The translations under genes were made by a program, and so were the position numbers. Of a stretch of DNA of 47,560 nt, positions 1 to 25,705 are shown one piece after another. The notes under the pieces are model-generated. The model worked only from the letters and a program-made list of their open reading frames with translations. It had not been told where the DNA came from and searched no databases. Numbering within the stretch: the stretch's first letter is position 1; each line of letters begins with the position of its first letter. This DNA is from Chloroflexota bacterium (lineage in GTDB: Bacteria > Chloroflexota > Anaerolineae > Promineifilales > Promineifilaceae): contig JAHDGV010000004.1 in assembly GCA_020631655.1 (NCBI GenBank), forward strand, positions 1 to 47,560, in the 5' to 3' direction.

Positions 1-361
1 AAATATTCCGGCCGATTTTTTGGCATCTAAAATCAGGATGAACACAGAACTCAGAACCGTAATAAAACTTCCCGGCCGGATCATGATTTTTAACGCACAG
101 CTCGCCTAAAACCTCACTTTCAGTTTCGGGCAAGTTTCGCCAGTCTAAATCGGTGAAGATGCCTGTTCCAAATCCCACAACCACTTCCCGCCTGCCGGCA
201 AGCAGCCCAACAATCGATCCTTCTGCAAAGATATCTGCCATTAGCTCTAAATCTTCAGGCACATACCTATCATCATCCGTCATATCAGGAAAACAGGAGT
301 TGATCAAATTGGCGACTGGCTCTGCCAAGTCGTAAGTTAAAGTGGTGTACCTGATTTCCAT
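1..361 (-). CDS. GNAT-like acetyltransferase-fold protein, paralog 3 of a tandem triplet (N-terminal ~120 codons only; the gene runs off the window start)
   Basis: My own reverse translation from the ATG at 361-359 gives MEIRYTTLTYDLAEPVANLINSCFPDMTDDDRYVPEDLELMADIFAEGSIV..VVGFGTGIFTDLDWRNLPETESE..YYGSEFCVHPDFRCQKIGR. This is colinear with the two upstream paralogs. It is absent from the ORF track because it is truncated by the window edge. Confidence 0.75.
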   Translation of the reverse strand, partial: MEIRYTTLTYDLAEPVANLINSCFPDMTDDDRYVPEDLELMADIFAEGSIVGLLAGRREVVVGFGTGIFTDLDWRNLPETESEVLGELCVKNHDPAGKFYYGSEFCVHPDFRCQKIGRNI

Positions 362-366
362 CGTCT

Positions 367-984
367 CTAGCCAGCATCTTCCGGGGTCCAAAGGATTAAT
401 GCGGCCCAATTGTCTGACCGTGGATAGGTGAAAAAATCTTTAATCGGCCGAATAATTTTAAAGCCGTTGCGCATCTGCATCGACAACGTAGGGTCAAACA
501 CCTCTCCAGCTTTCACCAAATCTAAGTAAGCATGCACGTCAGTGTTGTGTTTAAATTTTTCGTACCCGGGCAACACGGCCGCGGCCGCAAAGCCCACTTT
601 GCTATGCTTTACAACAACCGCTTTGCGCCGGTCATAAATCCCCCGGCCAATTCTTTGGCCACGGTAATCGGGATGCACACAAAAATCACTGCCATAGTAA
701 AAATCCCCCTGCGGATCATGCGCTGACTGTCCATCGATTTCGAGCAGTTCATTTTCAGTTAGGGGCAGATTATCAAAATCTAAATTCACAAAGATGCCAG
801 TTCCCATCCCCACCGGCCGATCCCCATCCAGCGCGATAATTGTCCCCTCAGGAAAAACCTCTGCCATCTCCTCTAAATCTTCTTCCCCATATTTATCGAT
901 GTCCGGCATGTCTGGAAAACAGATGTCCACTAGGTCAGCCACCGGTTTGCATAAGGCTTGATTGATTATGGTGTATGTAATCAT
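367..984 (-). CDS. GNAT-like acetyltransferase-fold protein, paralog 2
   Basis: Uses the ORF 367..1014. I chose the start at M11 (MITYTIINQALCKPVADLVDICFPDMP) by alignment with paralogs 1 and 3. That ATG (984-982) overlaps the TGA (983-981) of the upstream paralog as ATGA. The motif HPDYRGQRIGRGIYDRRK resembles GNAT motif A. The C-terminal block DPTLSMQMRNGF..RPIKDFFTYP.SDNW.ALILW is conserved. Confidence 0.75.
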   Translation of the reverse strand: MITYTIINQALCKPVADLVDICFPDMPDIDKYGEEDLEEMAEVFPEGTIIALDGDRPVGMGTGIFVNLDFDNLPLTENELLEIDGQSAHDPQGDFYYGSDFCVHPDYRGQRIGRGIYDRRKAVVVKHSKVGFAAAAVLPGYEKFKHNTDVHAYLDLVKAGEVFDPTLSMQMRNGFKIIRPIKDFFTYPRSDNWAALILWTPEDAG

Positions 985-1595
985 TCGGGTTTCCAGAGAA
1001 TCAAAGCACCCCAATTGTCTGATTTGGGGTAGGTAAAAAAGTCTTTAATCGGCCGCAACACGCTAAAGCCGTTCCGCATTTGCATAGACAGCGTGGGATC
1101 AAAAATCGTATATTCTCGAACCAATTGGATATAGGTATCGATATCCATTCGATGTTTTTCATTTTCGTAGCCGGGCAATACAGACACAGCCGCAAATCCA
1201 ACCTTCTGATGTTCTGTCACAATCTGTTTGCGCCGCTTATAAATCTGCCTGCCAATCCCCTTCATTCGGTACAGCGGATGAACACAAAACTCTGTGCCAA
1301 AGTAATATGAACCCTGCATATCATGTGCAAAGATATTGTCCGTATACAGCAGATCGTTTTCGGTAGGGGGCAAGTTGTCTAAATCCAAATCGAGAAAAAC
1401 GCCCGTACCAAATCCAACCGGCCGATCATCAACCTGTGCCACAACGCTCCCAGCCGGAAAATGATCAATCAGCTTTAACAGATCTTCCTCAAGATATTTA
1501 TCTTCGGGCGGCATGTCTGGAAAACAGGCGTCAACCAAATCCGCGACCGGCTGGCACAGCTCAGGAGATAATTTGGTATACGTGACATCTGACAT
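981..1595 (-). CDS. GNAT-like acetyltransferase-fold protein, paralog 1
   Basis: 204-aa ORF. It shares FPDMP, DRPVGFGTG, DNLP.TEN, FCVHP.YR..GIGR and DPTLSMQMRNGF..RPIKDFFTYPKSDNWGALILW with paralog 2. By eye roughly half to two-thirds of aligned positions are identical. Confidence 0.75.
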   Translation of the reverse strand: MSDVTYTKLSPELCQPVADLVDACFPDMPPEDKYLEEDLLKLIDHFPAGSVVAQVDDRPVGFGTGVFLDLDLDNLPPTENDLLYTDNIFAHDMQGSYYFGTEFCVHPLYRMKGIGRQIYKRRKQIVTEHQKVGFAAVSVLPGYENEKHRMDIDTYIQLVREYTIFDPTLSMQMRNGFSVLRPIKDFFTYPKSDNWGALILWKPE

Positions 1596-1622
1596 AAAGT
1601 TGAGCGTTTTTTGCCCAAAACA

Positions 1623-2468
1623 CTACTTGTTTTCGACTAATTTCCCATACGCATCCGGCCGACGTTGATTCAGCAACGGGAACAAATAGCGCCACTGTTC
1701 AAACAATTTTGAATCGAGTTCAGCAACCAAAACTTCTGTGGTATCGCGTCCCGCTTGGGCGATAATGTTGCCCATCGGATCACAGATAAAGCTACTGCCA
1801 TAAAACTCAACCCCTTCTTGACCGGTACGGTTGGCGGCCGCAATGTACACCCCATTAGCGATGGCTTGCCCGCGCATCACCGTTTGCCATGCTTCGGCCG
1901 TGTCTAATTCCGGGGCTTCTGGCTCAGATCCAATCGCGGTAGGGTAAAAGATAAATTCTGCACCATTTAGCGCACAAATTCGAGACATTTCAGGGAACCA
2001 TTGGTCATAGCAAGTTGGAATTGCCGTCTTTAATCCGGCCAAATCATGGATCGGATACTCGTTGTTGCCATTAAAATAGTAATCTTCGTAGTATCCAGCC
2101 CCCTGCGGAATATGAACTTTGCGGGTAAAGCCAATCAGATTGCCATCTGGGCCGCTTACAGTTGCCGTATCCCAATAATTGCCTTCGTCATCTTTTTCAT
2201 AGATGGAACCGATCAAGATAACTTTGTTTTCTTGTGCCAGCCGATTAAACACAGTCACACTTTCCCCGTCGTGCAACGATTCAGCCCGCTCAAAATTGAC
2301 ATCGTCTTTCACGCTGGCAAAGTAAGGGCACAGGGTAAATTCTTGCAGGCAGACAATCTGGGCACCTTTTTCGGCCGCGTCAGCCACCAATCCCTCAAGC
2401 TTTTTAATCATATCCGGCCGATTTCCGGCCCAATCTGTTTGGATAATTCCGATCTTTGTATTTTCCAT
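1623..2468 (-). CDS. aguB: Carbon-nitrogen hydrolase (nitrilase superfamily), resembling N-carbamoylputrescine amidase
   Basis: 281 aa. The Glu-Lys-Cys triad context is present: CLQEF, FTRKVHIP and IPTCYDQWFPE. The last closely resembles the CWDQWFPE block of N-carbamoylputrescine amidases. The actual substrate is not provable from sequence. Confidence 0.6.
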   Translation of the reverse strand: MENTKIGIIQTDWAGNRPDMIKKLEGLVADAAEKGAQIVCLQEFTLCPYFASVKDDVNFERAESLHDGESVTVFNRLAQENKVILIGSIYEKDDEGNYWDTATVSGPDGNLIGFTRKVHIPQGAGYYEDYYFNGNNEYPIHDLAGLKTAIPTCYDQWFPEMSRICALNGAEFIFYPTAIGSEPEAPELDTAEAWQTVMRGQAIANGVYIAAANRTGQEGVEFYGSSFICDPMGNIIAQAGRDTTEVLVAELDSKLFEQWRYLFPLLNQRRPDAYGKLVENK

Positions 2469-2482
2469 AAATTGCCCCGTAG

Positions 2483-2523
2483 GGGCGTAGCGCGCTACGC
2501 CCAGGGTCCAGCGCGCTGGACCC
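2483..2523. repeat. Twin perfect 20-nt GC-rich palindromes filling the junction between two genes
   Basis: GGGCGTAGCGCGCTACGCCC (2483-2502) and GGGTCCAGCGCGCTGGACCC (2504-2523) both have the form GGG-NNN-AGCGCGCT-NNN-CCC. They are bracketed by GTAGGGG (2479-2485) and CCCCTAC (2521-2527). The second palindrome abuts the stop codon of the agmatinase-like gene. Confidence 0.9.
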
Positions 2524-3444
2524 CTACATTAAATTTTTCCCCATGACCGACATCAATTCAAATGCGAGATTCGCACCCAAAATCGCGGTGATCGCTCCGT
2601 GGTCGTAATGTGGGTTAACCTCAACCAAATCAGCTCCAATCACGTTTAATCCAGCCAAGCCGCGCACCATGTGTAGCATTTGGAAGCTGGTAAAACCGCC
2701 CACTTCGGGCGTGCCAGTGCCGGGGGCATATGCCGGATCAATCGAGTCGATGTCAAGCGTGACATACACCGGCCGGTCACCTACTTTTTGGCGGATGTGA
2801 TCCACAATGGCGCTGGTCCCCATCTCAAAGCATTTTTCAATCGTCAGTACATCAGCCCCTAAATCTTCAGCCTCTTTAAGTTCACCTTCGTTTGATTGCG
2901 GACCACGAATGCCAACCTGCACATACGCACTTGTATCCACAAAGCCATCCCGTATCGCCAGATGAAACGGAGTCCCATGCTCCAGCTGTGGGATCACCTG
3001 ATAGCAGTCGGTATGTGAATCAAAGTGGACGAGGGCTACCGGCCCAAATTTTTCGGCATGAGCGCGCAAAAGCGGATAGGTAATCGAGTGATCCCCTCCC
3101 AGCGACATCACACGTACATCTTGCTTTAAAAGCTCCAAAACCCCGGCCGTGATCGCATCGGCCGACCGATCGATATTTGTAGGATCGCACTCAATATCAC
3201 CATAATCGATAAAGTTCACATCTTTGGTGGGCCAAATGCCGACATGCCGGTTATACCCCCACAGTTGCTTTGAGTTTTCGCGGATGCTACCGGGCCCATG
3301 CCGCGTGCCACTGCGCCAGCTGACCGCGCCGCTATCAAAGGGAATACCCACCACGGCCATATCTACATCGGTTAAATCACGCGTATGCTTGGCATGCATG
3401 AACGTGGAAATGCCCATGTATGCGGGGATAAATTCTTCTGTCAT
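2524..3444 (-). CDS. speB: Ureohydrolase of the arginase family (agmatinase / guanidino-acid hydrolase type)
   Basis: 306 aa with the arginase-family Mn-binding motifs HFDSHTD, GGDHSITYPLL and LDIDSIDPAYAPGTG. Agmatinase cannot be distinguished from guanidinobutyrase or guanidinopropionase by eye. Confidence 0.8.
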   Translation of the reverse strand: MTEEFIPAYMGISTFMHAKHTRDLTDVDMAVVGIPFDSGAVSWRSGTRHGPGSIRENSKQLWGYNRHVGIWPTKDVNFIDYGDIECDPTNIDRSADAITAGVLELLKQDVRVMSLGGDHSITYPLLRAHAEKFGPVALVHFDSHTDCYQVIPQLEHGTPFHLAIRDGFVDTSAYVQVGIRGPQSNEGELKEAEDLGADVLTIEKCFEMGTSAIVDHIRQKVGDRPVYVTLDIDSIDPAYAPGTGTPEVGGFTSFQMLHMVRGLAGLNVIGADLVEVNPHYDHGAITAILGANLAFELMSVMGKNLM

Positions 3445-3456
3445 GAAATGTCTCTC

Positions 3457-3529
3457 GTAGGGGTCGAAGGGTCCGGAACCAAATTGGCTACGAAGAAATT
3501 AACTATTTCCCGGACCCTTCGACCCCTAC
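3457..3529. repeat. Long inverted repeat with perfect 20-bp arms and a 33-nt loop, in a gene junction
   Basis: GTAGGGGTCGAAGGGTCCGG (3457-3476) is the exact reverse complement of CCGGACCCTTCGACCCCTAC (3510-3529). It has the same GTAGGGG/CCCCTAC termini as the 2479-2527 element. Confidence 0.9.
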
Positions 3530-3532
3530 ACC

Positions 3533-5122
3533 TTAGGCGGCCGCTTTTTCTCGATCACGCAAAATCTGCATCGAGGCGAGCTTGCCAGGTGCGCCGATCA
3601 CACAGCCACCAGGATGGGTCCCTGAGCCGCACTGGTAATACCCTTTGATCGGGGTGCGATATTGGTTCCAGCCAGGTGCAGGACGGCTGAAAAACAGCTG
3701 ATCTGCGAACAGTTCCCCATGGAAAATATTCCCTTCAGCAATGCCCACAATCCGCTCAATATCAAGCGGGGTCACCACTTCACGGTGTTCAACCAGATCA
3801 TTAAATCCAGGGAAGAACGAGTTGAGCGTCTCTTGAACCGCGTCTCCCAAATTGTCCCGTTCCGTGTCCCAATCGCTATCTTTTAGATGATAAGGGGCCC
3901 ACATCACAAAGTTAGACATGATGTGTTTGCCCGGCGGGGTCATGTCAGGATCAATGGTTGATTGAATACAGCCATCGATAAACGGCCGACGGCTAAAACG
4001 TCCTTCCTGTGCATCGGCAAACGCCTCTTCAAGGTAATCAAACGTTGGACCCACATTCAAAAAGCCACGGAATATTTCGGAAGAATATTCGTGGTTTGGA
4101 TGTTTGGGCACGTCACTCAGCACAAAGTTCACTTTGGCCGCTGATCCTTGGAATTTAAAGTCTTCGATGTGTTTGACCAGATCTTCTGGCAGTTCGGCCG
4201 GATCGACCAAGCGCAAAAATGTATTGCGTGGGTCAAGGGCCGACACAACAATATCTGCGTAGATTTCTTCACCGCTTGAGAGCTTCACACCAATGGCAGC
4301 ACCATCTTTGCGCAATACCTCATCCACACCGGCGTCACACAGTATGGTGCCACCAAACGCCTCAAACGCGCGGCCGAGACATTGGGTAAAACCACCGTTC
4401 CCCCCTTTGTGGAAACCCCATTCGCCAAAGATGCCGTCATACTCACCCATTTTGTGGAAGAGCCAAACCATCCCGCTTTCTTTTGAGCGGGGGCCGCACA
4501 TGCTACCGATAATGGCACTTGAAGCCAGCATTCCTTTGACAAGATCGTTTTCAAAATACTCGTCTAACACCTCGGCGATGCTACTGGTCCACAGTTTTTG
4601 CACCATGTCCTGCACATCGGGCGGCATCCCTTCCATAATGGCGTGGAATTCAGCCATCCGCTCAAGTTCTTCTGGCTCTTGGCTTTGGGGATTGGGCGGG
4701 ATCATATCAACCAGCGGTTTTAGGGCGTGGCAAACCCGATCCATGATGTGGCCAAAGTCGTGCATCGCTTCCGCATCTTCCAAAGATAGCTTGGCAATCT
4801 CGTGATAATTTTCGTAGCTGTCAGCACCCAATTTCAAGAATCGGCCGTCTTCAGCCGGATGGAAGTGGTTGGGCATCGGCAAGGTCATCATGCCGTGTTC
4901 CGGCAGATTCAGCTCTTGACAAATGTCCGGCCGGATCAGGCTCAACGCGTACGAGAAGGTCGTAAATTTATAGCCGGGCAACAGCTCTTCGGTAACAGCG
5001 GCACCACCGACATACGGCCGTCGCTCAAGGACTAGCGTGTTGAGTCCCGCTTTGGCCAAATAACCAGCGTTCACAAGTCCGTTGTGTCCGCCTCCGATTA
5101 CGATTGCATCATATTTTTTCAT
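3533..5122 (-). CDS. FAD/NAD(P)-dependent oxidoreductase, phytoene-desaturase (CrtI)/amine-oxidase-like fold
   Basis: 529 aa. The N-terminal dinucleotide-binding motif is KKYDAIVIGGGHNGLVNAGYLAKAGLNTLVLERRPYVGGAA. The C-terminal block GSGTHPGGCVIGAPG is typical of CrtI-like flavoproteins. Confidence 0.75.
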   Translation of the reverse strand: MKKYDAIVIGGGHNGLVNAGYLAKAGLNTLVLERRPYVGGAAVTEELLPGYKFTTFSYALSLIRPDICQELNLPEHGMMTLPMPNHFHPAEDGRFLKLGADSYENYHEIAKLSLEDAEAMHDFGHIMDRVCHALKPLVDMIPPNPQSQEPEELERMAEFHAIMEGMPPDVQDMVQKLWTSSIAEVLDEYFENDLVKGMLASSAIIGSMCGPRSKESGMVWLFHKMGEYDGIFGEWGFHKGGNGGFTQCLGRAFEAFGGTILCDAGVDEVLRKDGAAIGVKLSSGEEIYADIVVSALDPRNTFLRLVDPAELPEDLVKHIEDFKFQGSAAKVNFVLSDVPKHPNHEYSSEIFRGFLNVGPTFDYLEEAFADAQEGRFSRRPFIDGCIQSTIDPDMTPPGKHIMSNFVMWAPYHLKDSDWDTERDNLGDAVQETLNSFFPGFNDLVEHREVVTPLDIERIVGIAEGNIFHGELFADQLFFSRPAPGWNQYRTPIKGYYQCGSGTHPGGCVIGAPGKLASMQILRDREKAAA

Positions 5123-5267
5123 TTGAACTCTCAGTCCATTAACTATTCAGAATTAATTGTTCTTTATTAATTATTTTCGGCCGAGCGTTAAGCCAAAATC
5201 AAATCACTCGCCAAGCCCCGCTTGAAATAATTAATAAGGAATAATCAACAAAAAATAATTAACGGGT

Positions 5268-6488
5268 CTATTCTCTAGCCGTCTTCCGCGCCGGATTAAA
5301 GAACGGCAATTCAGCCACACGAGCTTTTACATTCACGCTTCGGCGAATAATACTCAACTCTAAATCTACTTCTGTCCCGGGTTCACACAGTTCAAGCGGC
5401 AGTTTTGCGATAGCGATGTGACTGCGCAACAGAGACGAGTACATCATACAGGTCGCATATCCACCGTATTCCCACGGGGTGTCGCTAATCTTGTAGATGT
5501 TCATCGTCCCTTCGTTAAACACCCCCTCAAGCGGAGGCATAATGCCCGCCTCACGATGTTTTTCTTGATAATCGTACCAATCGATAATGAGACCAACCGT
5601 GTTGTGGCGGCTGGTCCTGTTGGCGATTTCAGCCTCGATCGCTTCCCGGCCGATGAAAGCCCGATCATCTTTTGCCAGATTCTTGAACATCCAGCCCCAG
5701 CCCAGCTCATGCGCCGTGTCCTGTTGTGCGTCGGTCCATGCATAGCGAGACGAGTAGAAGTCAACATCAAGCAAAAGCAAGCCAGCCTCGATGCGAGCCA
5801 TTTTCAGGGCGTGTAACCCCATGGGGGTGATGTTGTAGCCGCTTCCGGCCGACATTAGTGCATCCCACACCGCCACACAGCTGTCTTTTGGAACCCAAAG
5901 TTCATAACCAAGATCCCCCGTGTAGCCGGTGCGCGAAATCACCACAGAGTGGCCGTCTAGTTTGGTGTGTGCCAACCGGAAAAAGCCAACACCGTTTAGA
6001 TCGCTGGTTAGCTCTTGTAAAATTTCGAGTGATTTTGGACCCTGCAACGCCAAAATACCATAGTCGGTTGTAATGTCATCAATTTGAACATCAAACCCTT
6101 TTTTGCGGGCGATTTGTCTAAAGTAGCGCAGGTTAGGCTCGGCCGCGGTGAGCCAATATTCTCCCACGCTCACATGCATAATAACCCCATCTTCAACCAC
6201 ATAACCGGCATCATCACACCAAACGGTGTACTGTGCTCGGCCGGGTTTGCACTTGCGGATATCCCGTGCCATGGCATGCATTAAGAATGCTTCGGCATCG
6301 GGTCCGCTAAATTTATATTTAAACAGGGGAGATGTATCTAACAATCCGGCCGAATTACGCACCGAATAGTATTCTGAAATTTCAGAGTGTTGATATTGAG
6401 GAGCCACTAAATAGCCGGCCCAGTTCTCCCAGATCTGGGGGTGATTGAGCGGTCCTGTCCGCGGGTGAAAAGGTGTTGTTTTGGGCAT
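5268..6488 (-). CDS. Aminomethyltransferase-family (GcvT-like, folate-binding) protein
   Basis: 406 aa. GLLDTSPLFKYKFSGPDAEAFL, GILALQGPKS, ISRTGYTGDLGYELW and ARIEAGLLL are the hallmark GcvT-fold blocks. Confidence 0.75.
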   Translation of the reverse strand: MPKTTPFHPRTGPLNHPQIWENWAGYLVAPQYQHSEISEYYSVRNSAGLLDTSPLFKYKFSGPDAEAFLMHAMARDIRKCKPGRAQYTVWCDDAGYVVEDGVIMHVSVGEYWLTAAEPNLRYFRQIARKKGFDVQIDDITTDYGILALQGPKSLEILQELTSDLNGVGFFRLAHTKLDGHSVVISRTGYTGDLGYELWVPKDSCVAVWDALMSAGSGYNITPMGLHALKMARIEAGLLLLDVDFYSSRYAWTDAQQDTAHELGWGWMFKNLAKDDRAFIGREAIEAEIANRTSRHNTVGLIIDWYDYQEKHREAGIMPPLEGVFNEGTMNIYKISDTPWEYGGYATCMMYSSLLRSHIAIAKLPLELCEPGTEVDLELSIIRRSVNVKARVAELPFFNPARKTARE

Positions 6489-6566
6489 TAGAGAAAAGAG
6501 TAGAGAGAAAAGAGTAGAGAGGAAAACACAAGTCTCTCCTCTCTATCTCTCATCTCTTGTCTTACA
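6489..6566. repeat. Polypurine/polypyrimidine mirror element containing a 14-nt tandem repeat
   Basis: GAGAAAAGAGTAGA occurs twice in tandem (6491-6504 and 6505-6518). It is followed by a CT-only tract (6533-6560) that is largely complementary to the purine tract. The element occupies the whole potD/gcvT-like junction. Confidence 0.85.
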
Positions 6567-7709
6567 TTAGTTGCCAGCTTTAACAGCGGTCCAGAGCTCG
6601 TCGTATGCTTGAGCACCTTCGTCGCTAGCTTCGGTTAACCAGTAAAGTTTTTCTTGAACATCAGCTGGTGGATAGATCGATGGATCTTCCAAAATTTCCG
6701 GCAAGATAAATTCTTCGGCCGCTTTATTAGGGCTACCGTAGTACACGTAGTTGGTGATTGCCGCACCGTTCTCAGCGTCGAGCAAGAAGTTCATGAAATG
6801 AACGGCCGTGTCATAACGCTCGCTGGTTGCCGTGATACAGATGTTATCCAACCATTTAACCGCACCCTCTTCAGGGATTGAGTAGTACCAGTTGCCATCT
6901 TCAGCTTCGTCATCATAGGTTTCGTAGTATGCCTGGGCAACACCACCGCTCCAGCCGTGGCTCAAAACCACTTCATCTGGCACCAACAGGGTAGATGGGT
7001 AGTCTTCACTGTTAAACGTTTTCCAGAACGGTTTAGCCGCCAACATGACTTCAAGCATCTGATCCATTTCGGCCGGATCAGTTGTATTAGCATCAAAGCC
7101 CAAGTAAATCGCGGCCGCCGCTGAGAGCTCACGTGGGTCGTTCAAAACGTTTACGCCACCATCAGCGAACTCAGCCAAATATTCTGGATCAAACAGGTAT
7201 TTCCAGCTGGTTGGTTCGTTGGCTTCAAAATATTCGTTGCCCGCACGGTAACCAATTCCGGTTGTACCCCATTGGTAAGGCACGCAGTGTTTGTTGTCTG
7301 GGTCAAACGGCGCATTCATAAACTGCGGGTCCATGTTGCCGATGTTTGACATCGTGCTGACATCGATTTCAGCCAGCAAGCCCTGATCGATCATGATCGA
7401 AACCATGTAGTCAGATGGGAAGATGACATCATAGCCCTCTGCACCTGCATTGAGTTTTGCCAGCAGGTCTTCGTTAGACGCGTAGGTGTCATAAATAATT
7501 TTGACCCCGTGCTCTTCTTCGTATTGTGTGAGCAATTCTTCGTCGATGTAATCGGCCCAGTTATAAACACTGAGTTCGGCCGCGAGCTCCCCATCACCGC
7601 CACCAGCACCAGCTTCTGGCCCACCACCGGGGCCGCCGGGTCCGCCACCACATGCTGCTAAAGCAAAAGCGGCGATCAATGTTGTGAACAAGATAAACTT
7701 TTTCAACAT
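6567..7709 (-). CDS. potD: Spermidine/putrescine-type ABC substrate-binding lipoprotein (PotD/PotF family)
   Basis: The start is moved to M43 of the ORF (MLKKFILFTTLIAAFALAACGG). This gives a lipoprotein signal with a lipobox, preceded by AGGAG at 7718-7722. A Gly-rich tether follows, then PotD-like blocks (VYNWADYI, IFPSDYM, VPYQWGTTGI). Confidence 0.8.
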   Translation of the reverse strand: MLKKFILFTTLIAAFALAACGGGPGGPGGGPEAGAGGGDGELAAELSVYNWADYIDEELLTQYEEEHGVKIIYDTYASNEDLLAKLNAGAEGYDVIFPSDYMVSIMIDQGLLAEIDVSTMSNIGNMDPQFMNAPFDPDNKHCVPYQWGTTGIGYRAGNEYFEANEPTSWKYLFDPEYLAEFADGGVNVLNDPRELSAAAAIYLGFDANTTDPAEMDQMLEVMLAAKPFWKTFNSEDYPSTLLVPDEVVLSHGWSGGVAQAYYETYDDEAEDGNWYYSIPEEGAVKWLDNICITATSERYDTAVHFMNFLLDAENGAAITNYVYYGSPNKAAEEFILPEILEDPSIYPPADVQEKLYWLTEASDEGAQAYDELWTAVKAGN

Positions 7710-7841
7710 GATTCTTCTCCTTTGAATATTGTCGATATAAAAAACGTGTTGCGTGGTACGTAGCAGTTGATTCGATCCCAACCAATACGCAATACGCATC
7801 ACGGTTTTAACATTTTTAATTGGGCTATTACCCAATCATGA

Positions 7842-8651
7842 TCACGTCCGGCGCTGGATCATGAGCGAGATGATCACCAACAAGGTTGATCCCATAAACA
7901 TCAGCGTCGAGATCACATTTACCTCTGGTGAAGCGCCAAAGCGAATTTTTGAAAAGATTAAAACGGGGAGTGTGGTTGAACCGGGGCCTGCCATGAAGAA
8001 GGTGATCACAAAGTCATCCAGCGACAGGGTAAACGCAAGCAGTGCACCTGCAACGATTCCGGGGAGCAAGAGCGGCACGGTGATGCGTCTAAACGTCTCC
8101 CAAGGATTTGCTCCAAGATCGGCCGCCGCCTCTTCAAGCGAAGCATCCATATCGGCAAGACGTGCCCGTACTACAATCGCTACAAACGCAATGTTGAACG
8201 CAACGTGGGCGATCAAAATTGTATATCGGCTCAAACTAATCCCCAAAATCACAAAGAACAAAAGCGTGGACAGCGCCATCACAATATCAGGGATGATGAT
8301 TGGCAGATACAAAATCGCATCGTAGGTGGCTTTGCCCCAGAACTTAAAGCGTTCCATGGCGATGGCGGTTAGCGTGCCTAAAATTGTGCTGATTACCGTG
8401 GACCAGAATGCGACCCACATGCTAACGCTAAAGGCGTTGCGTACCGACTCATCGTTAAACACTTCTGTATACCAACGTGTGCTAAACCCGGTCCAAACGC
8501 TGGCAAAACGATTGTCGTTGAAGGAATAGACGATCAAGATAATGATGGGCAGGTAGAGGAAGATAAACATCCCGATTGCTAACCAAGAGAGCGCCCGTTC
8601 GTTAAACGATTTTCGGATTTTATTGCGGGGGGTGATTGTTGTTGCCGCCAT
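7842..8651 (-). CDS. potC: Spermidine/putrescine-type ABC transporter permease (PotC-like)
   Basis: The start is set at M32 of the ORF (MAATTITPRNK). That ATG at 8651-8649 overlaps the potB TAA (8653-8651) as TAATG. The EAA-loop motif is LEEAAADLGANPWETFRRITVPLLLPG. Confidence 0.8.
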   Translation of the reverse strand: MAATTITPRNKIRKSFNERALSWLAIGMFIFLYLPIIILIVYSFNDNRFASVWTGFSTRWYTEVFNDESVRNAFSVSMWVAFWSTVISTILGTLTAIAMERFKFWGKATYDAILYLPIIIPDIVMALSTLLFFVILGISLSRYTILIAHVAFNIAFVAIVVRARLADMDASLEEAAADLGANPWETFRRITVPLLLPGIVAGALLAFTLSLDDFVITFFMAGPGSTTLPVLIFSKIRFGASPEVNVISTLMFMGSTLLVIISLMIQRRT

Positions 8652-9985
8652 TATTCTCTTGCACCTCCCACCCGGAAGTAGATCATGATGGCGAGGAGCA
8701 TGATGGCCATCATCAAGAAGCCGATGGCGGAGCCGAAGGGCCAATCACGCGCTGTCATAAACTGCTGCTGGAGCAAGTTGCCGAGCAAGGCTACTTTTCC
8801 GCCACCCAAAATGGCGGGGGTCACGTATGATCCCAGCGAGGGGACAAAGACGATGATGCCGGCCGCCACAATGCCGGGCATCGACAGGGGCAACAGCACG
8901 CGAATGGTTGTTTGAAAGCCGCTCGCACCTAAATCTGCGGCCGCTTCTAGCAATGACCAATCAAGTTGTTCAAGATTGCTGTAAATGGGCAACACCACAA
9001 AGGGGAAGAAGCCATAAAACAGCCCCATGAACACCGCCCCCTGATTAAACAGCAGGGGCAGTGGCTCGGCCGTGATGCTGGCCAACCACGCAAAAAACCC
9101 GCTTGATCCAGCCAGCATTTGCGCCTGCTCGTGCAGGGTAATGGTCCAAATATTATTGATCAGCCCCGTATCACGCAGAAGCAACATCCACGCGTATGTC
9201 CGCACCAAAAAGTTGGTCCAAAACGGAATCATGACCAGAAAGATCAAAATGTTGCGCCACTTCTCCGGCTTGCGGGCGATCCAGTAAGCAAACGGATAGC
9301 CAAACAGTAGACAAACGATGGTGTTTACCAAAGCTAGCCAAAACGACTTCCAGAAGATCCGCAGATAAATTAGCTGACCGCCAATGCGACTAAAGAAGCG
9401 TGCGTAATCATCAAACAGTGATAGAAAGCCATCTTCCAAAATATTGGGGTAGATGATGGTGCCGCGCGGCCCCCGTTCGCTCAGGCTGATGACGAAAACA
9501 ATCAAGTTTGGCAAAACAAAGAAGATAATGAGCCAAAAGGCGGCCGGATAGTTGATGGCCCACGCCGTTTGGCGGGTCAAGAGCAATAGGATCATCCCAG
9601 CTAGAGCAGCAAAAAAGATCGCCCCCATAAATTCATCGGCCGTCCACCAGTAGGCGGTTGCCAAGGCAATCAGGACGACGTTACGTCCGATTGCGGCCGT
9701 CTTTGCCCAGCCGATCTCACGTAAAATCGCGCCACCAAGCACCAAGTCAACGGCCGCACCTATCCCATAAAGCAGATAGGGTGTGATGCTAGGGAACTCT
9801 GACAGCACCGTTTCAAATTCAAACGGTTCCCAGCCCACAGAGCCAAAGGTGACCCAGCGGACCAATAGCAAGATCCAGAGCAAACCATGGCCCAGCAAAA
9901 ACCAAGCGGCCGTCCGCATGGTAGGATCCAATCCCGCCGCAAACGATGTTTCATCTTGTTTTAGAGATTCAAAAACTGTAGCCAT
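8651..9985 (-). CDS. potB: Spermidine/putrescine-type ABC transporter permease (PotB-like) with a ~150-aa N-terminal multi-TM extension
   Basis: 444 aa. The C-terminal ~290 aa are PotB-like, with the EAA loop LLEAAADLGASGFQTTIRVLLPLSMPG. The start at 9985 sits 1 nt from the potA stop codon (9987-9989), which supports the long form. Confidence 0.75.
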   Translation of the reverse strand: MATVFESLKQDETSFAAGLDPTMRTAAWFLLGHGLLWILLLVRWVTFGSVGWEPFEFETVLSEFPSITPYLLYGIGAAVDLVLGGAILREIGWAKTAAIGRNVVLIALATAYWWTADEFMGAIFFAALAGMILLLLTRQTAWAINYPAAFWLIIFFVLPNLIVFVISLSERGPRGTIIYPNILEDGFLSLFDDYARFFSRIGGQLIYLRIFWKSFWLALVNTIVCLLFGYPFAYWIARKPEKWRNILIFLVMIPFWTNFLVRTYAWMLLLRDTGLINNIWTITLHEQAQMLAGSSGFFAWLASITAEPLPLLFNQGAVFMGLFYGFFPFVVLPIYSNLEQLDWSLLEAAADLGASGFQTTIRVLLPLSMPGIVAAGIIVFVPSLGSYVTPAILGGGKVALLGNLLQQQFMTARDWPFGSAIGFLMMAIMLLAIMIYFRVGGARE

Positions 9986-9986
9986 C

Positions 9987-11081
9987 TTATTCTGCTAAAA
10001 CCTGTGCATTGTTGATACGCCACTGAACGTGAACTTCGTCACCTTTGTTAAAGGCGATGTCTTCCGGCCGGCCCAGATTCTGGACGCGCACAAAAAGTTT
10101 ATCTCCGGTAGGGATCACAACCTGATAGCGGGTATCAGTTCCGATGTAGATGATGTCCCGAATGGTCCCATCGAGAGTAATCGTTTCGCTATCTGTGTTG
10201 AGAAACCCGGTTTTAAGCGAAAGAACAATTTTTTCCGGCCGGATAGCGAGTGTTGCCTTATCTCCAACCGCCATTTTGACTTTAGATCGGCCGGCCAGCT
10301 TTACATCATCCGATTCAAGCACCGTGCTGTTGCTGTCAGAATCAACGACTGTCCCATCAATAAAGTTTGTTTCACCGATGAAGTCAGCCACAAACCGATT
10401 GTTGGGTTGCTCATAAATCTCACGAGCTGGGCCGATTTGTTGCACCTTGCCGTCACTCATCACCGCAATTCGATCCGACATCGTAATCGCTTCTTCTTGG
10501 TCATGGGTCACATAAATAAACGTAATCCCCAGCTCTTCTTGAATCTGTTTCAGCTCAAGCTGCATATTTTTGCGAAGCTTCAGGTCAAGGGCTCCCAATG
10601 GCTCATCCAAAAGCAAAACTTTTGGCCAATTAACAAGTGCTCGGGCCAAGGCCACACGCTGCTTTTGCCCACCAGACATTTGCGTTGTGCGACGTTCCCC
10701 AAAGCCAGACATTTCAACCAACCCTAGAGCGGCATCAACGCGTTTTTTGATTTCATCGGCCGGAACCTTTGCCATTTCTAGCCCAAAGGCGACATTCTTA
10801 GCCACAGTCATGTGGGGGAAAAGCGCATAACTTTGAAAGACGGTATTCACCGGCCGGCGATAGGCGGGAACCCCAGCAACAGGCTGCCCCATAATCGAGA
10901 TTTGCCCCATCGTAGGCTGTTCAAAACCGGCGATCAGGCGTAATGTCGTAGTTTTCCCACATCCACTGGGACCCAGCAGAGAGAAAAATTCCCCGTCTTT
11001 AATATCAATCGAGATATTATCAACGGCAACCACATCCCCGAATGCTTTGGTTACATCTGTGATCTGAACTGCAGATGACAT
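9987..11081 (-). CDS. potA: Spermidine/putrescine-type ABC transporter ATPase (PotA-like)
   Basis: 364 aa with Walker [10 protein letters not shown], signature [15 protein letters not shown], Walker [12 protein letters not shown] and a C-terminal TOBE-like domain. Confidence 0.85.
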
Positions 11082-11097
11082 AATTTGCTCGTTAAAC

Positions 11098-11586
11098 TCA
11101 ACTGGCGTTAAGCTCTTCCTTTTCTTCGTCTACGTGTAAGCTTTTTTCAACGTCTACTTCTTCCAATTTATAAGTATGAAGGACGAGTGTGGAAACGGTT
11201 TTTTGCACCCCTTCCACCTTTTGTAATTTATCGCGAATAAAATCGGCCAGATGGTGTCGGTCGCGACAGCGAACCTCTACCATCAAGTCATATTCGCCAG
11301 AAACCATCAGCAAATAGCTAACTTCTGGGAACCCTTTAATGGCTTGAGCAGCCCCATCTAAATGAGGTGGAGCAACGGTAACTTGGATGATTGCGGGGGA
11401 TTCGAAGCCTACTTTGTGTGGATCAACTAAACCGATGATTCGTATCACATCATCTTCAAGCAGTCGCGCGGCCCGTTTGCGCACAGTTCCCTCGGTTACC
11501 CCAATTGCACGGGCAATATCGGTGTAGGATTTCCGGCCGTCAGCTTGAAGATGTGAAAGTATTGAACGATCGATTTGGTCTAACAT
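11098..11586 (-). CDS. Lrp/AsnC-family transcriptional regulator
   Basis: 162 aa. The N-terminal HTH is [41 protein letters not shown]. The C-terminal part is a RAM/AsnC-type ligand domain. Confidence 0.85.
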
Positions 11587-11601
11587 GGCGAATCGGCCGG
11601 G

Positions 11602-11629
11602 ATTGTAAGACGAAATTCGGAATTGTCAA
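11602..11629 (-). promoter_or_regulatory. Sigma70-like promoter TTGACA-16 nt-TACAAT for the Lrp-headed operon
   Basis: The minus strand reads TTGACA (11629-11624), a 16-nt spacer, then TACAAT (11607-11602). Only 15 nt separate the -10 box from the lrp-like ATG at 11586. Confidence 0.6.
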
Positions 11630-11645: not shown

Positions 11646-11683
11646 AACGTAAAAAGGGCTACCCGAGATTCGAGTAGCCCTTT
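11646..11683 (-). terminator. Rho-independent terminator of the giant gene
   Basis: A 10-bp stem pairs AAAGGGCTAC (11653-11662) with GTAGCCCTTT (11674-11683). On the minus strand it is followed by the T-rich tail TTTACGTTTT, whose first Ts overlap the stem base. It lies ~50 nt downstream of the stop at 11735. Confidence 0.7.
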
Positions 11684-11734
11684 CCGGAGTGAAACACTCT
11701 TTCCGGTTAAGTTTTGATAATTAGCAAGTCGCTT

Positions 11735-14700
11735 TTATGGCTCGATGATCTCAATATCGTCAACCGTGTAGCGAACCGGCAGGTTGCTTTGCGAAGATGC
11801 GGTTGTGAAGAAGAAACCAAAACCACCCGGCGCTTGTAATGCTGATTCAGAATCCGTTGCGCTAAACTGCCACTCGGCCGGTTCTGGGTCAGTTACGCGC
11901 CACATCTTTACATCAAACGTTGTAGGAGATGTGTCTGTGACCCTGACCTTGATGTTGTAATCGGTATCTGGTGCAAACGAGACATTCGATATCCATTTAC
12001 GAGGAGCGACCAGGGACCATGAGCCTTCGGCAGACTTTGCCAGACCCATGTACACCGCTCCGCCACCAAATACCCGGAATGAAACTTGGTATCTTGTGGC
12101 TGAATCGATGAAGCGAGGTTCGTAAATAAACTCGTGCCACGACTGCGGGGCCGTTTCGATATTTAGCACCATCGTCATTTCAGAGTTGGTTGCACTGCTA
12201 CCGTCAATAAACGTCCGGAGCTTTTGGCCACCAAACGATAAATCAACCGTTCCTTCTGATCCATCAACGCCAAAATTCGCATTGTTGGCACCTACATATT
12301 TGTACAATCCACCCGTCTCAGCACTGCCCCACGATTCTGATTCAGTCCGTGAAAACGAATCGGCCGCGTGAACGTTGCCCTGTGCAGGAACAGTTGGAGT
12401 TGGTGATGGGGTTGGCGTTGCTTCAGGAGCCTCAAGTTCTTTCAAGACTTGCAAGTCATCGATTGTAAACAGAACCGGCGGATTTGAAGTAGCTGACGAA
12501 ATTTGGAAGCGGAATCCAACTGCACCGGGCACCTGCAAAGATGCGGCCGAATCTGTCGTTTCGGCATGCCAAACATCAGGTTGTGCCTCCCCTTCAGCCC
12601 AAACGCGGGCTTTTAAGTTGGTTGGATTGGTTGATGAGGTCTGAACCCGAATGTTTAGATAGCTATCTGGCTCAAATGAAACCCCTGGAACCGTTATGTA
12701 ATTCTCTAGTCGGGACCAAGATCCGTTGTCGTATTTTTCAAAGGCGATCTGAACCAGTCCAGTTGAATAGGTGCGCACGGCCGTTCGATACATTGTGCCT
12801 GAACGCACGCGCCGGGTAATTACTTTAACTTCTTGCCAGCTGTTTGTGTCTTTGTCAGATTTGATTTTAAAGGTCAAATCTGAGTCAAGGGCTGAAACGC
12901 TCTGCAAAATCGCCTCACGGCCGATGGCTGAGGTTAGCACGATGTCAGCCGCGCCGTCATTCACGTCAAAGTCGTTGGCTGCCGCTGATCCCCAAAGATG
13001 GGTATATTCACCACCAACTTCGGCTGATCCCCACTGGTCCGTCTCCGTTCTTGAGAAGGAGTCAAACACCCAATAATCATCTGCGTTTCCAATCGAAGGG
13101 GTAGCAGTTGGCGTTGGAGTTGGGAACGTATCACTCACCAAATCAGTAACTGTGTAATCGTCAACCGACATTTGGATTGGCACATTGGTTGTGTTGCCGC
13201 CCACTTGGAACTTGAGGCCAACCGATCCAGCCTGTTGTAGAGCTGGCTCAGAATCTGTCGTGGTCAAATTCCACGCTGATGGTTCGTTAGCCGAAGCATC
13301 CCAAATCCGCACAGCCAGTTGGGTTGGAGAACTACCTTCTGTTACGACACGGACGTTGTACTCAGTATCAGGCAAAAACGTGAAGTTCGGGATGGTGTAG
13401 TTATTCTCAAGACGTTTCCACGAATTATTGACCAATCGGTCAAAGAATAGGGTAACTGACCCGTTGCTGTTGATCCGCACCACCGAGCGATACATGGTAG
13501 TGTTATTCATGCGGCGGGTATGAATCTTGACATCCATCCAGCTTGATGGGAGTTTGTCGGCCGAGAATATGAACAGAGTATCGCTATCAAGGGCGGAGAC
13601 TTCACCAAGGTTGGCTTCGCGCCCCATGCCAGCCGCTGTTAAATTAGCCAACCCTTTTTCCCCATCAACTTCAAACGTCTGATTGGCGGAACTGCCCCAA
13701 AGATGGGTATATGCCCCACCAGTGTCTGCACTATTCCAACCAGCGGCCGAAATTCGAGAGAAATCGTCAGAAACATAAACGGTTCCACCGACTGGCGGTG
13801 TAGCTGTTGGAGCCACTGTTTGGGTTGCCGTCGCAGTTGGAACGGCCGTATTTGTCGCGGTTGCCGTTGGCGTAGCGGTCTGTGTTGGAGTTGGGGTATT
13901 TGTTGCTGTCGCTGTTGGAGTCAGCGTTTGTGTTGCCGTTACCGTTGGAGTCAGCGTTTGAGTAGCAGTTGACGTTGGAGTCAGTGTTTGTGTTGCTGTT
14001 GCTGTCGGAACGGCCGTGTTTGTTGCCGTAGCCGTTGGTGTTGGCGCAACCTCACAATCTAGGTTTGGATCATTCCCAACCACGCCACAAAAATCTCCAA
14101 CAGCTAAAGCCCAATCTGATAGATCCAAGCCGGAAAGCTGTTGATTCTGGTTCGTGAGCGTACCTAGGAGTTTCTCACCCGTGATCGTATTCAGTGCCAC
14201 ATACGGGATAGAACTATCAGACATCCAAGTGAGATCAACTGATACTGAGTCAGCATTTTCTTTGTAAAAAATGGCCAACTCATCAGTCACAGACCGCAAG
14301 CAGACCCCGTCGGTCAAGCTGTTGCACCGTTCCATGTCTGCTCGGAAACGAGGAGACATGAAATCTGAGTAAGCCTTTATTTCGGCCGCGTTGGGGTATG
14401 CCCGCGAGCCCTCATCATACGATCCACCATCTTGGAACTGCATGTTGCCCCAGATGTTTGCCACACCACCGGCCATAGCTGAATGCCACATGCCTCGGCG
14501 TGTTTCTTCGAAGGTGTAATCTTTCACTGTAAAGGCTTGATTAATGCGGAATCTATCTTCAGAAAATGCAGGTTTATTCGGCCGGAAATTGATGGCATTT
14601 ACATACCAATCGTAATCAGGATTATGCTGTTCATAAGATGCATAGGATAAGACATCGGTGTACTGCATGATTTGGTTTTTAGCGCCGCGGGCACCCAACA

Positions 14701-25146: not shown

Positions 25147-25701
25147 TTGACCAAAACGATTCAACTTCCTCTCACGGCCGAAAGTGTGAAACAGCTACAA
25201 GCGGGTGATGTGGTTCTGCTCACCGGCCGGCTTCTAACCGCCCGCGATGCGGCGCACAAACGGCTCATTTCTGAACTAGAAGCGGGGCTGCAACTCCCCA
25301 TCGATTTAAAAGATGAAACGATCTTTTACGTCGGGCCAGCCCCTGCAAAAGCGGGTCGGCCGATTGGTCCGGCCGGGCCCACCACCAGCGGCCGAATGGA
25401 CCCGTTTACCCTACCACTGCTCAAGCTGGGTGTCCGCGGCCTAATCGGCAAAGGGTATCGTAGTGATCGGGTGAAACTGGCGCTGATTGAGCATCAAGCG
25501 GTCTATTTTGGAGCGGTGGGCGGTGCGGCTGCCCTGCTGGCCCGACAAATCACATCGGCCGAAGTGGTTGCGTACGCCGATCTTGGCACCGAAGCGATTC
25601 GCCGTTTGGAGGTCGAAGATTTTCCGGTTCTTGTGGTAAACGATTGTCACGGTGGGGATGCATATTCGGCCGGGCGGGAAGAATTTCAAAAGGACAGTTA
25701 A
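25147..25701 (+). CDS. Class I (Fe-S) fumarate hydratase / tartrate dehydratase, beta subunit
   Basis: 184 aa. The block LQAGDVVLLTGRLLTARDAAHKRL is typical of beta subunits. The start is TTG and I see no Shine-Dalgarno sequence. Confidence 0.8.
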   Translation: MTKTIQLPLTAESVKQLQAGDVVLLTGRLLTARDAAHKRLISELEAGLQLPIDLKDETIFYVGPAPAKAGRPIGPAGPTTSGRMDPFTLPLLKLGVRGLIGKGYRSDRVKLALIEHQAVYFGAVGGAAALLARQITSAEVVAYADLGTEAIRRLEVEDFPVLVVNDCHGGDAYSAGREEFQKDS

Positions 25702-25705
25702 GGTT

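Follow-up and report, generated by a model that had tools for sequence, protein, structure and literature searches.

The first 11.6 kb of a 47.5-kb stretch of metagenomic DNA (47,560 nucleotides, called the window below) encode an Lrp/AsnC-type regulator, a PotABCD-type polyamine importer and a series of amine- and guanidino-related enzymes. The nearest relatives of the window are Chloroflexota of the Promineifilaceae type, and the only sequencing runs that contain the region are DNA runs of the source sample, an algae metagenome. On balance, the region is probably a lineage-specific composite operon for the scavenging and breakdown of agmatine- and polyamine-type amines, made of three separable modules: the PotABCD importer with GNAT-like proteins and other partners, an AguB-like CN-hydrolase, and a pair formed by a GcvT-like protein and a CrtI-like flavoprotein. 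The operon was regarded as a mosaic, and not as one dedicated pathway, because these modules occur separately elsewhere. Gene content, protein families, module boundaries and conservation are described as observed, and every substrate and reaction step proposed for them is one that we infer.

Conservation of the operon

Twelve long open reading frames (ORFs), all on the minus strand, run from position 11586 down to base 2. ORF calls and profile searches against Pfam and NCBIfam confirmed the gene order and the shared direction given in a preliminary description of this DNA. Orthologous clusters found in related genomes are compared in Table 1. The window and loci L083, L090, L025 and L033 each encode PotABCD, the GcvT-like protein, the flavoprotein, the CN-hydrolase and GNAT-like proteins as a single co-directional cluster. 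Locus L089 keeps this co-directional set minus the CN-hydrolase gene, and the L036 record stops short of the region where the latter lies. An AsnC-type gene stands at the head of the orthologous clusters in L083, L088, L089 and L090. The genes that the preliminary description had joined into one unit are thus co-conserved within the lineage, where the cluster was found again in seven relatives of the Promineifilaceae type. Beyond the GcvT-like/flavoprotein pair, the operon is kept only in close relatives.

Table 1. Gene content of clusters related to the operon, with the identity of their flavoprotein to that of the window
Locus	Flavoprotein identity	Gene content
L083	90%	Lrp, PotABC, small M10-like, PotD, GcvT, FAD, agmatinase, polyamine-oxidase-type, CN-hydrolase, GNAT-like x3, GabT-like
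L090	81%	divergent Amidohydro_3; AsnC, PotABCD, GcvT, FAD, agmatinase, small GNAT, CN-hydrolase, GNAT-like
L089	76%	AsnC, PotABCD, GcvT, DUF4178 x2, FAD, GNAT-like x2; without agmatinase and CN-hydrolase
L025, L033	64%	PotABCD, aldehyde dehydrogenase, polyamine-oxidase-type, aminotransferase, GcvT, FAD, CN-hydrolase, aminotransferase x2, PAD_porph (AguA), GNAT-like gene(s)
L036	64%	L025 order as far as FAD, then WD40-type gene; record ends there

The presence of one co-directional cluster in these genomes speaks for a different explanation, namely that the operon as a whole encodes a single dedicated and undescribed pathway for a substituted amine (N-methylated, guanidino, carbamoyl or acetylated), in which all the enzymes act in turn on one imported compound and plain agmatine and polyamines are not substrates. 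The algal sample would also suit such a pathway, since algae make N-methylated long-chain polyamines. We consider this explanation unlikely; it is opposed by the finding of the three modules independently of each other, and the other evidence on both sides is given below with the proteins concerned.

The GcvT-like protein and its flavoprotein partner

Species-representative genomes were scanned using the flavoprotein as the anchor, and 80 loci were collected in which the flavoprotein is 61-75% identical to that of the window. Their record titles place them under eight phylum-level labels: Chloroflexota, Actinomycetota, Planctomycetota, Gemmatimonadota, Acidobacteriota, Verrucomicrobiota, Proteobacteria and Latescibacterota. 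In 77 of the 80 genomes, the flavoprotein gene is preceded, on its own strand, by that of the GcvT-like homolog, and the estimated gap is -14 to 148 nt in 71 of those 77 (median, 16 nt). In two of the three exceptions, the flavoprotein gene is at the end of a contig. When the ORFs of the 80 loci were clustered, no further gene family was common to more than 18 loci. Since the pairing is strict and no other family is widely shared, the two genes constitute a self-contained module. The strict pairing also backs the idea, put forward in the preliminary description, that an aminomethyltransferase next to a flavoprotein follows the logic of oxidative N-demethylation.

The GcvT-like protein scored below the cut-offs of the GcvT models (TIGR00528, 142.4 against 235.85; NF001567, 186.3 against 300), and neither gcvH nor gcvP was found among the annotated genes of the operon; it is a GcvT-fold protein that is not GcvT. 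Its top match in both NCBIfam and the PDB was the tetrahydrofolate domain of trimethylamine N-oxide (TMAO) demethylase. Among the known demethylating systems and their relatives, it is closest to the tetrahydrofolate domains of TMAO demethylase, GcvT, dimethylglycine dehydrogenase and the alpha subunit of sarcosine oxidase and, as in dimethylglycine oxidase, dimethylglycine dehydrogenase and sarcosine oxidase, the GcvT-fold protein is obligatorily partnered with a flavoprotein. Unlike in those enzymes, the flavoprotein is of the CrtI/COG1233 type (Pfam Amino_oxidase) and not of the DAO type, and the two partners are separate polypeptides encoded by separate genes. The one-carbon (C1)-bearing substrate that such a pair implies is a point in favor of a dedicated pathway for a substituted amine.

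The flavoprotein was far below the cut-offs of the carotenoid enzyme models (TIGR02734, 89 against 238.1; CrtO, 261.3 against 1000), and no carotenoid genes were found nearby. Its sole PDB relative past the N-terminal FAD-binding fold was CrtI (1.5e-12). Because the protein is far under every carotenoid-enzyme cut-off, the label "phytoene desaturase" is unsupported. An AlphaFold2 (AF2) model built on a 12-sequence alignment had a predicted local distance difference test (pLDDT) value of 58.6, too low for use. Our literature searches found no paper describing a GcvT/phytoene desaturase pairing and no demonstrated demethylase activity for PYROXD2, a human orphan flavoprotein whose function is given as largely unknown in one report (PMC8777681).

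This PotABCD cluster was present in only three of the 80 flavoprotein-anchored genomes (L025, L033 and L036). About eight Acidimicrobiia-type loci have just distant Pot-like and aminotransferase homologs near the pair, and the remaining contexts are unrelated. The Acidimicrobiia-type loci represent a different amine-catabolic setting for the pair; in L054, L057, L072 and L075 it adjoins genes for a Rieske/ring-hydroxylating-type oxygenase, an acyl-CoA dehydrogenase, a class-III aminotransferase and a Pot-like ABC importer.

The small number of PotABCD clusters raises the question of whether the pair is just co-located with the importer, as a general-purpose unit that possibly has its own transcription signals and acts on a substrate unrelated to PotABCD import. 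The junctions around the pair in the window, which are unusually long and include hairpins (78 nt upstream, 145 nt internal, 88 nt downstream) in comparison to the median internal gap of 16 nt elsewhere, point in the same direction, as does the occurrence of the PotABCD module without the pair in sister genomes. However, no promoter-like site was found on the coding strand ahead of the gcvT-like gene, the nearest minus-strand matches (6940-6912 and 6079-6052) being located inside coding sequence. Furthermore, the cluster still includes the pair in relatives with as little as 64% flavoprotein identity, and the Acidimicrobiia-type loci separately associate it with a Pot-like importer, as well as with the aminotransferase, the oxygenase and the acyl-CoA dehydrogenase. 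These last two observations suggest that the pair has a real link to imported amines, and co-location with no shared substrate was judged improbable.

The GNAT-like proteins and the importer module

The PotABCD module can be recognized in the absence of the pair through its GNAT-like proteins. A profile search recovered 831 relatives of these proteins and those with a named source were Chloroflexota or unclassified. The tree consists of two deep clades, I and II, with 100/100 support, and tandem pairs encoded on one contig typically include one protein of each clade, which suggests a heteromeric or two-step enzyme. Copies 1 and 2 of the window belong to clade I. The branch of copy 1 measures 0.9 changes per column and this copy looks like a fast-evolving extra duplicate. 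Copy 3, which was left outside the tree, aligns best with the second copy of L083, a member of a clade I sub-branch. Because the window copies appear to belong to clade I and the pairs are typically I plus II, a clade II protein corresponding to the third L083 copy is expected just past the edge of the window.

A second neighborhood scan, anchored on the GNAT-like proteins, yielded another 80 loci, in none of which were homologs of the GcvT-like protein, the flavoprotein or the CN-hydrolase found. Loci L087 and L091 include PotABCD with a long PotB, Amidohydro_3, an aminotransferase and GNAT-like proteins of both clades, and lack the pair and the CN-hydrolase. Locus L088 includes AsnC, PotABCD, two GNAT-like proteins, three aminotransferases, an aldehyde ferredoxin oxidoreductase and an aldehyde dehydrogenase (ALDH), with divergent genes of the DAO and AAT families. 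Four distant metagenome loci (L134, L149, L152 and L163) have an aminotransferase, a clade II GNAT-like protein, Lrp and PotABC(D), in this order; an agmatinase-family gene is present in the first three and not in L163, and DAO and amidohydrolase genes diverge from the cluster in L149. The agmatine deiminase gene, aguA, adjoins the GNAT gene in L097, L098 and L101. The GNAT-like proteins are therefore tied to agmatine-converting enzymes, aminotransferases and this importer, in a module that is independent of the GcvT-like/flavoprotein pair.

An Amidohydro_3 protein encoded in the window outside the region of the preliminary description is also a conserved member of this Lrp-PotABCD-GNAT module, judging from its relatives. 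It is 65% identical to the product of the L090 gene that diverges from AsnC, and 47-49% identical to those of L087 and L091, where the gene is located between potD and the aminotransferase gene, and of L040, where it is downstream of the flavoprotein gene. The window gene, too, is divergent from the operon, and a 6.6-kb gene for a 2200-amino-acid (aa) secreted protein, which looks like an insertion, lies between the two.

The chemistry of the GNAT-like proteins was addressed by sequence and structure comparisons. The PF00583 threshold was exceeded (26.8 against 20.7), and the coenzyme A (CoA)-binding motif A is intact, with an invariant V-H-P-x-x-R-x-x-x-I-G-R stretch. A plain sequence search of the PDB with copy 1 returned nothing meaningful, and the top sequence-profile matches of the family in the PDB, thialysine and diamine acetyltransferases, were short and weak. 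The AF2 model of copy 1 (pLDDT, 93.8) has a GNAT fold. In Foldseek comparisons, it matched the GNAT-like decarboxylase domains of CurA, GphF and SxtA at full length, with template modeling (TM) scores of 0.80-0.83 in both directions, while ordinary N-acetyltransferases, including PaiA and EctA, matched the core only (query TM score, TMq, at most 0.66). The alignment of the family profile to the SxtA domain (E = 0.011) covers residues 11-189 and includes a C-terminal D-P-x-L motif. In this alignment, D-P-T-L-S-M-Q-L-R-N-G-F of the family lies over D-P-I-V-G-F-H-V-S-G-G-A of SxtA, and the invariant Gln172 takes the place of the SxtA His (DPIVGFH), which we take to be the catalytic residue. The catalytic His of the polyketide synthase (PKS) decarboxylases is thus not conserved in the family. 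In comparison to the GNAT-like decarboxylases of PKS loading modules (CurA GNAT_L, GphF and SxtA), the window proteins share the full-length fold, the D-P-x-L motif and the CoA-binding motif A; they differ in being free-standing tandem paralogs with 15-18% identity to those domains. The model and the alignments indicate that they are acyl-CoA-binding GNAT-fold proteins of a distinct subclass.

The importer and its binding protein

The importer has the four-component architecture of E. coli PotABCD and PotFGHI, and its ATPase passes the cut-off of the potA subfamily model. Unlike the E. coli systems, the permeases and the binding protein are below the equivalog cut-offs of what are still their best-matching families (PotB, 227 against 348; PotC, 262.9 against 326; PotF, 221.9 against 636; PotD, 200 against 582), and PotB is extended at its N-terminus by a conserved membrane region of about 150 aa. 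This long form, of 438-455 aa, was also found in L025, L033, L036, L083 and L087-L090. The PotB-like permeases encoded beside the GcvT-like/flavoprotein pair in the Acidimicrobiia-type loci have 306-327 aa.

The top PDB matches of the binding protein, a lipoprotein, were PotF variants with PotD-like pocket changes (224 bits), followed by wild-type PotF (214) and PotD (189). The alignment to the PotF variants placed the residues W-A-D-Y, S-D-Y, D..E, W, W-x-D and Y in the binding pocket. In PotF numbering, which we assume together with the identities and roles of the PotF and PotD residues, the pocket keeps W37, D39, Y40, S85, E185, W244, D278 and Y314, and with them the aromatic and acidic residues of the E. 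coli proteins. The pocket is a PotF/PotD hybrid, in which the PotD-like residues Y, D and W occupy positions 87, 182 and 276; A is found at position 38 and G at 247, and position 86 has an additional Asp. A comparison of 15 orthologs showed the same pocket whether or not the pair is encoded in the cluster, with variation at position 247 only. Although L087 and L091 lack the pair, their binding proteins resemble that of the window more closely (78% identity) than the L083 protein does (74%).

The unchanged pocket in clusters without the pair argues against an importer specialized for a methylated ligand, and a binding protein with this specialization was rejected as a candidate. The same observation speaks against a pathway dedicated to one substituted amine and took away the ground for the earlier claim that such an amine is imported, rather than plain putrescine or spermidine.

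The agmatine enzymes

The ureohydrolase passed the agmatinase models, and its metal-binding motifs, GGDH, DSHTD and DIDSIDP (DxHxD and DxDxxDP), aligned with those of PDB entries 4dz4, 3nio and 1gq6. The highest-scoring structure was agmatinase 4dz4 (240 bits), followed by guanidinobutyrase (227), proclavaminate amidinohydrolase (221), agmatinase 7lol (220) and guanidinopropionase (210). Action on agmatine is the default reading of these matches. A dedicated pathway for a substituted amine would find some support in an enzyme that is equidistant from several guanidino-acid hydrolases.

The best named match of the CN-hydrolase was AguB, and its top PDB matches were 6mg6, an unnamed carbon-nitrogen hydrolase, and 5h8i, a plant N-carbamoylputrescine amidohydrolase. 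The stretches LQE, RKvHIP (RKxHIP) and CyDQWFPE (CxDQWFPE), which presumably hold the Glu-Lys-Cys catalytic triad, aligned with both structures. The score of this protein is below the AguB cut-off, and this was counted in favor of a dedicated pathway. The PAD_porph protein of L025, however, passed both agmatine deiminase models (514.6 against 381.8 and 517 against 483), and the CN-hydrolase clustered with this AguA, 71% identical to that of the window, reached just 242.9 bits with the AguB model. Because an ortholog beside a genuine AguA scores equally low, the low score is a property of the lineage, whose AguB-like clade scores 243-259 bits against a cut-off of 410, and not a sign of another function. 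The proposal that the CN-hydrolase is not AguB since it falls below the cut-off was rejected for the same reason.

Agmatine is converted to putrescine by the SpeB agmatinase or by AguA and AguB, and putrescine is then degraded in Pseudomonas by SpuC/KauB/GabT-type steps. The relatives of the window add components of these routes to the cluster. Besides the AguA of L025 and L033, there is in L025, L033 and L036 a polyamine-oxidase-type flavoprotein, an ALDH and one or more class-III aminotransferases; the best model of the ALDH was aminobutyraldehyde dehydrogenase, below its cut-off. Locus L083 includes an oxidase-type gene and a GabT-like aminotransferase with a GabT score of 504.7 against a cut-off of 506.65. 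No gamma-glutamylation (Pau/Puu) genes were seen. The departure from the known routes is that the window joins an agmatinase to an AguB-like enzyme with no AguA in the window; the window, L083 and L090 all have the agmatinase in place of AguA and keep the AguB-like gene. While this combination was taken as a point for a dedicated pathway, the canonical genes of the relatives are a point against it. Together with the agmatinase scores of the window ureohydrolase, the latter also contradict the statement in the preliminary description that the gene set fits no canonical polyamine pathway. To the extent that sequence allows a judgment, the binding protein and the enzymes largely conform to plain putrescine/spermidine and agmatine specificity.

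Layout of the locus and junctions between genes

The coordinates of the genes and of other features of the locus are listed in Table 2. The promoter-like site ends 15 nt ahead of the ATG of the Lrp gene and is the strongest one in 12 kb. The terminator-like hairpin farther upstream is predicted to close the gene for the 2200-aa protein and, with the promoter, would form a clean 5' boundary of the operon. The 3' end probably lies beyond the window, as the cluster of L083, the relative with 90% flavoprotein identity, runs on into the GabT-like aminotransferase gene. Spacing and direction suggest that the 12 genes are co-transcribed. The most likely start of PotC, correcting the ORF call, is the ATG at 8651, because it gives a 1-nt overlap with the potB stop and a length of 269 aa, as in the orthologs; for the PotD-type protein, the most likely start is at 7709 (MLKKF..., lipobox LAAC). 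An exact-protein look-up with GNAT-like paralog 1 returned only two short contigs (2.7 and 2.5 kb), with nothing beyond the window. Tblastn searches across the 47.5 kb found no homologs of polyamine oxidase, class-III aminotransferase, ALDH or agmatine deiminase, the last of which had already been reported missing.

Table 2. Coordinates of the operon genes and associated features in the window
Feature	Coordinates	Strand	Basis
Lrp/AsnC regulator, 162 aa	11098..11586	-	PF13404 6.9e-16 (AsnC-type helix-turn-helix) and PF01037 1.1e-20 (ligand-binding domain)
PotA-type ABC ATPase with TOBE domain	9987..11081	-	TIGR01187 potA subfamily, 413.9 bits against cut-off of 355.6
PotB-type permease, 444 aa	8651..9985	-	PotB model covers residues 150-439 only
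PotC-type permease, 269 aa	7842..8651	-	PotC model, 262.9 bits
PotD/PotF-family lipoprotein binding protein	6567..7709	-	PF13416; PotF model 221.9 bits, PotD model 200 bits
GcvT-fold, folate-type aminomethyltransferase-like protein, stand-alone	5268..6488	-	PF01571, 1e-59
CrtI/COG1233-type FAD oxidoreductase, 529 aa	3533..5122	-	PF01593 and PF13450
Agmatinase-family ureohydrolase, 306 aa	2524..3444	-	NF002564, 322 against 302; TIGR01230, 227.7 against 174.3
CN-hydrolase, best model AguB	1623..2468	-	TIGR03381, 258.7 bits against cut-off of 410.25
GNAT-like paralog 1, clade I, long branch	981..1595	-	PF00583 weak match; AF2 model; tree
GNAT-like paralog 2, clade I	367..984	-	start overlaps paralog 1 stop (ATGA)
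GNAT-like paralog 3, truncated by window edge	2..361	-	best alignment is second L083 copy
Amidohydro_3 amidohydrolase, 537 aa	18569..20182	+	PF07969, 3.5e-96
Hairpin and T-run, intrinsic-terminator-like	11653..11683	-	14-nt arms, 93% complementary, 3-nt loop; then TTTTTACGTTTT
Sigma-70-like promoter, TTGACA-16-TACAAT	11602..11629	-	11/12 consensus matches; consensus match only
GC-rich palindrome, flavoprotein/agmatinase junction	3457..3529		perfect 20-bp arms; no T-tail
Two back-to-back GC-rich palindromes, agmatinase/CN-hydrolase junction	2483..2523		fill the junction; no T-tail

The palindromes at the gene junctions were considered as intrinsic terminators and rejected; they have no T-tails, and the number of terminator-like sites in the region, 14, is that expected from shuffled sequence (13.6). 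Those at 2483-2523 and 3457-3529 are edged by GTAGGGG...CCCCTAC and resemble repetitive extragenic palindromic (REP) elements. At the 2483-2523 position, L083 has the polyamine-oxidase-type gene and L090 the small GNAT gene and, because these two genomes hold different genes there, the REP-like palindromes mark a spot of gene turnover. An AT-rich inverted repeat with 41-nt arms, 76% complementary, occupies the 145-nt junction between the GcvT-like and flavoprotein genes (5123-5267), where L089 has its two DUF4178 genes inserted. The potC-potD gap of the window is 132 nt of non-coding DNA; at this place, L083 has a 221-aa ORF (6727-7392) with a weak match to the zinc motif of Peptidase_M10/M57. 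In L025 (Ca. Leptofilum), a gene for a 1194-aa protein with many WD40 repeats (11725-15309) follows the flavoprotein gene inside the polyamine supercluster, and L036 has at the corresponding position a related, cut WD40-type ORF of 1111 aa (11767-15099), which falls into one sequence cluster with it. Gene content between the conserved blocks thus varies freely (polyamine-oxidase-type, small GNAT, DUF4178, WD40 and M10-like inserts), a turnover that speaks against one pathway in which all the enzymes act on a single compound.

Elsewhere in the window, a 397-aa ORF (25652-26845, plus strand) strongly matches indoleamine 2,3-dioxygenase (PF01231, 5e-89), a family that is uncommon in bacteria. It adjoins genes for a class I fumarate hydratase subunit and an NAD(P)HX repair fusion protein.

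Discussion

The composite operon proposed here would combine two uncharacterised modules with a largely canonical core and, in consequence, the novelty resides in these modules and not in a single new pathway. Under Lrp control, the PotABCD module would import agmatine and polyamines, its partners being the tandem GNAT-like I/II proteins, a class-III aminotransferase, an amide hydrolase and an agmatine-converting enzyme, which is the agmatinase in the window. Imported agmatine would be converted to putrescine and urea by the agmatinase, and putrescine would then be transaminated; the aminotransferase gene is expected just past the edge of the window. The GNAT-like proteins and the amide hydrolase, Amidohydro_3 in the window, could shield one amino group with an acyl residue and later free it again, much as in the gamma-glutamyl route.

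Diamines are catabolized with acyl-protection in the E. coli Puu gamma-glutamyl pathway and in the eukaryotic N-acetylputrescine route. Their protect-oxidize-deprotect logic would be matched by the recurring presence, beside the importer, of an acyl-CoA-binding transferase-fold protein, a flavoprotein oxidase or aminotransferase, an ALDH and an amide hydrolase. The difference is that the hydrolase family changes among these loci, being Amidohydro_3, Amidohydro_1, AAT/Ntn-type or CN-hydrolase. A search of the literature on bacterial N-acetylputrescine catabolism found nothing directly relevant. The Lrp-PotABCD-GNAT set is probably an alternative to the gamma-glutamylation route.

The AguB-like CN-hydrolase, as a second module, would release putrescine from N-carbamoylputrescine. 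This compound, an intermediate of plant and perhaps also algal putrescine synthesis, could be produced by an agmatine deiminase encoded elsewhere or be taken up from the algal host. The GcvT-like protein and the flavoprotein form a two-gene unit inserted in the operon, which most likely oxidizes an amine N-methyl (C1) group and passes the carbon to tetrahydrofolate. A more ambitious version of this scheme is an undescribed route for N-methylated polyamines or agmatine-type amines of algae, in which the PotD-like protein imports the compound, the pair demethylates it onto tetrahydrofolate, and acyl-protection by GNAT I/II and Amidohydro_3 feeds the aminotransferases. We hold it to be quite improbable, more so than either of the explanations discussed above; if it is true, the widespread GcvT/CrtI-like pair would for the first time be assigned a class of substrates.

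Several observations weigh against a composite operon for agmatine and polyamine use. The proposed flow from agmatine to putrescine and beyond relies on genes located past the contig edge or elsewhere, because the window has no aminotransferase, ALDH or agmatine deiminase. The specificity of the ureohydrolase for agmatine is not proven, because the structures of guanidinobutyrase, guanidinopropionase and proclavaminate amidinohydrolase score nearly as high as the agmatinases. A plain pathway gives no explanation for an AguB-like gene beside an agmatinase without AguA. The GNAT-like proteins appear, from the AF2 model, to be structurally nearest to the PKS decarboxylase domains and not to polyamine acetyltransferases. 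The independence of the PotABCD module and a pocket unchanged by the presence of the pair keep alive the view that the pair is a hitchhiker, and we know of no precedent for this pair in a polyamine context. Finally, the junction hairpins could divide the region into several transcription units. 

With these points taken into account, the composite operon is still the explanation that we prefer. The preliminary interpretation survives in part: the conservation of the gene set within the lineage and the demethylase logic stood, and the idea of a gene set for something other than ordinary agmatine and polyamine use did not.

Polyamine consumption by Chloroflexota and other uncultured bacteria of phycospheres and wastewater is little known. 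The present analysis defines a recurrent, uncharacterised gene set that consists of Lrp, PotABCD with a long PotB, GNAT-like I/II proteins, a class-III aminotransferase, an amide hydrolase and an agmatine enzyme. For annotation, the cut-off of the AguB model may miss the enzyme of this lineage, and "GNAT acetyltransferase" may describe the wrong chemistry for these paralogs. The polyamine-operon setting of the GcvT-like/CrtI-like pair, in turn, narrows its candidate substrates.

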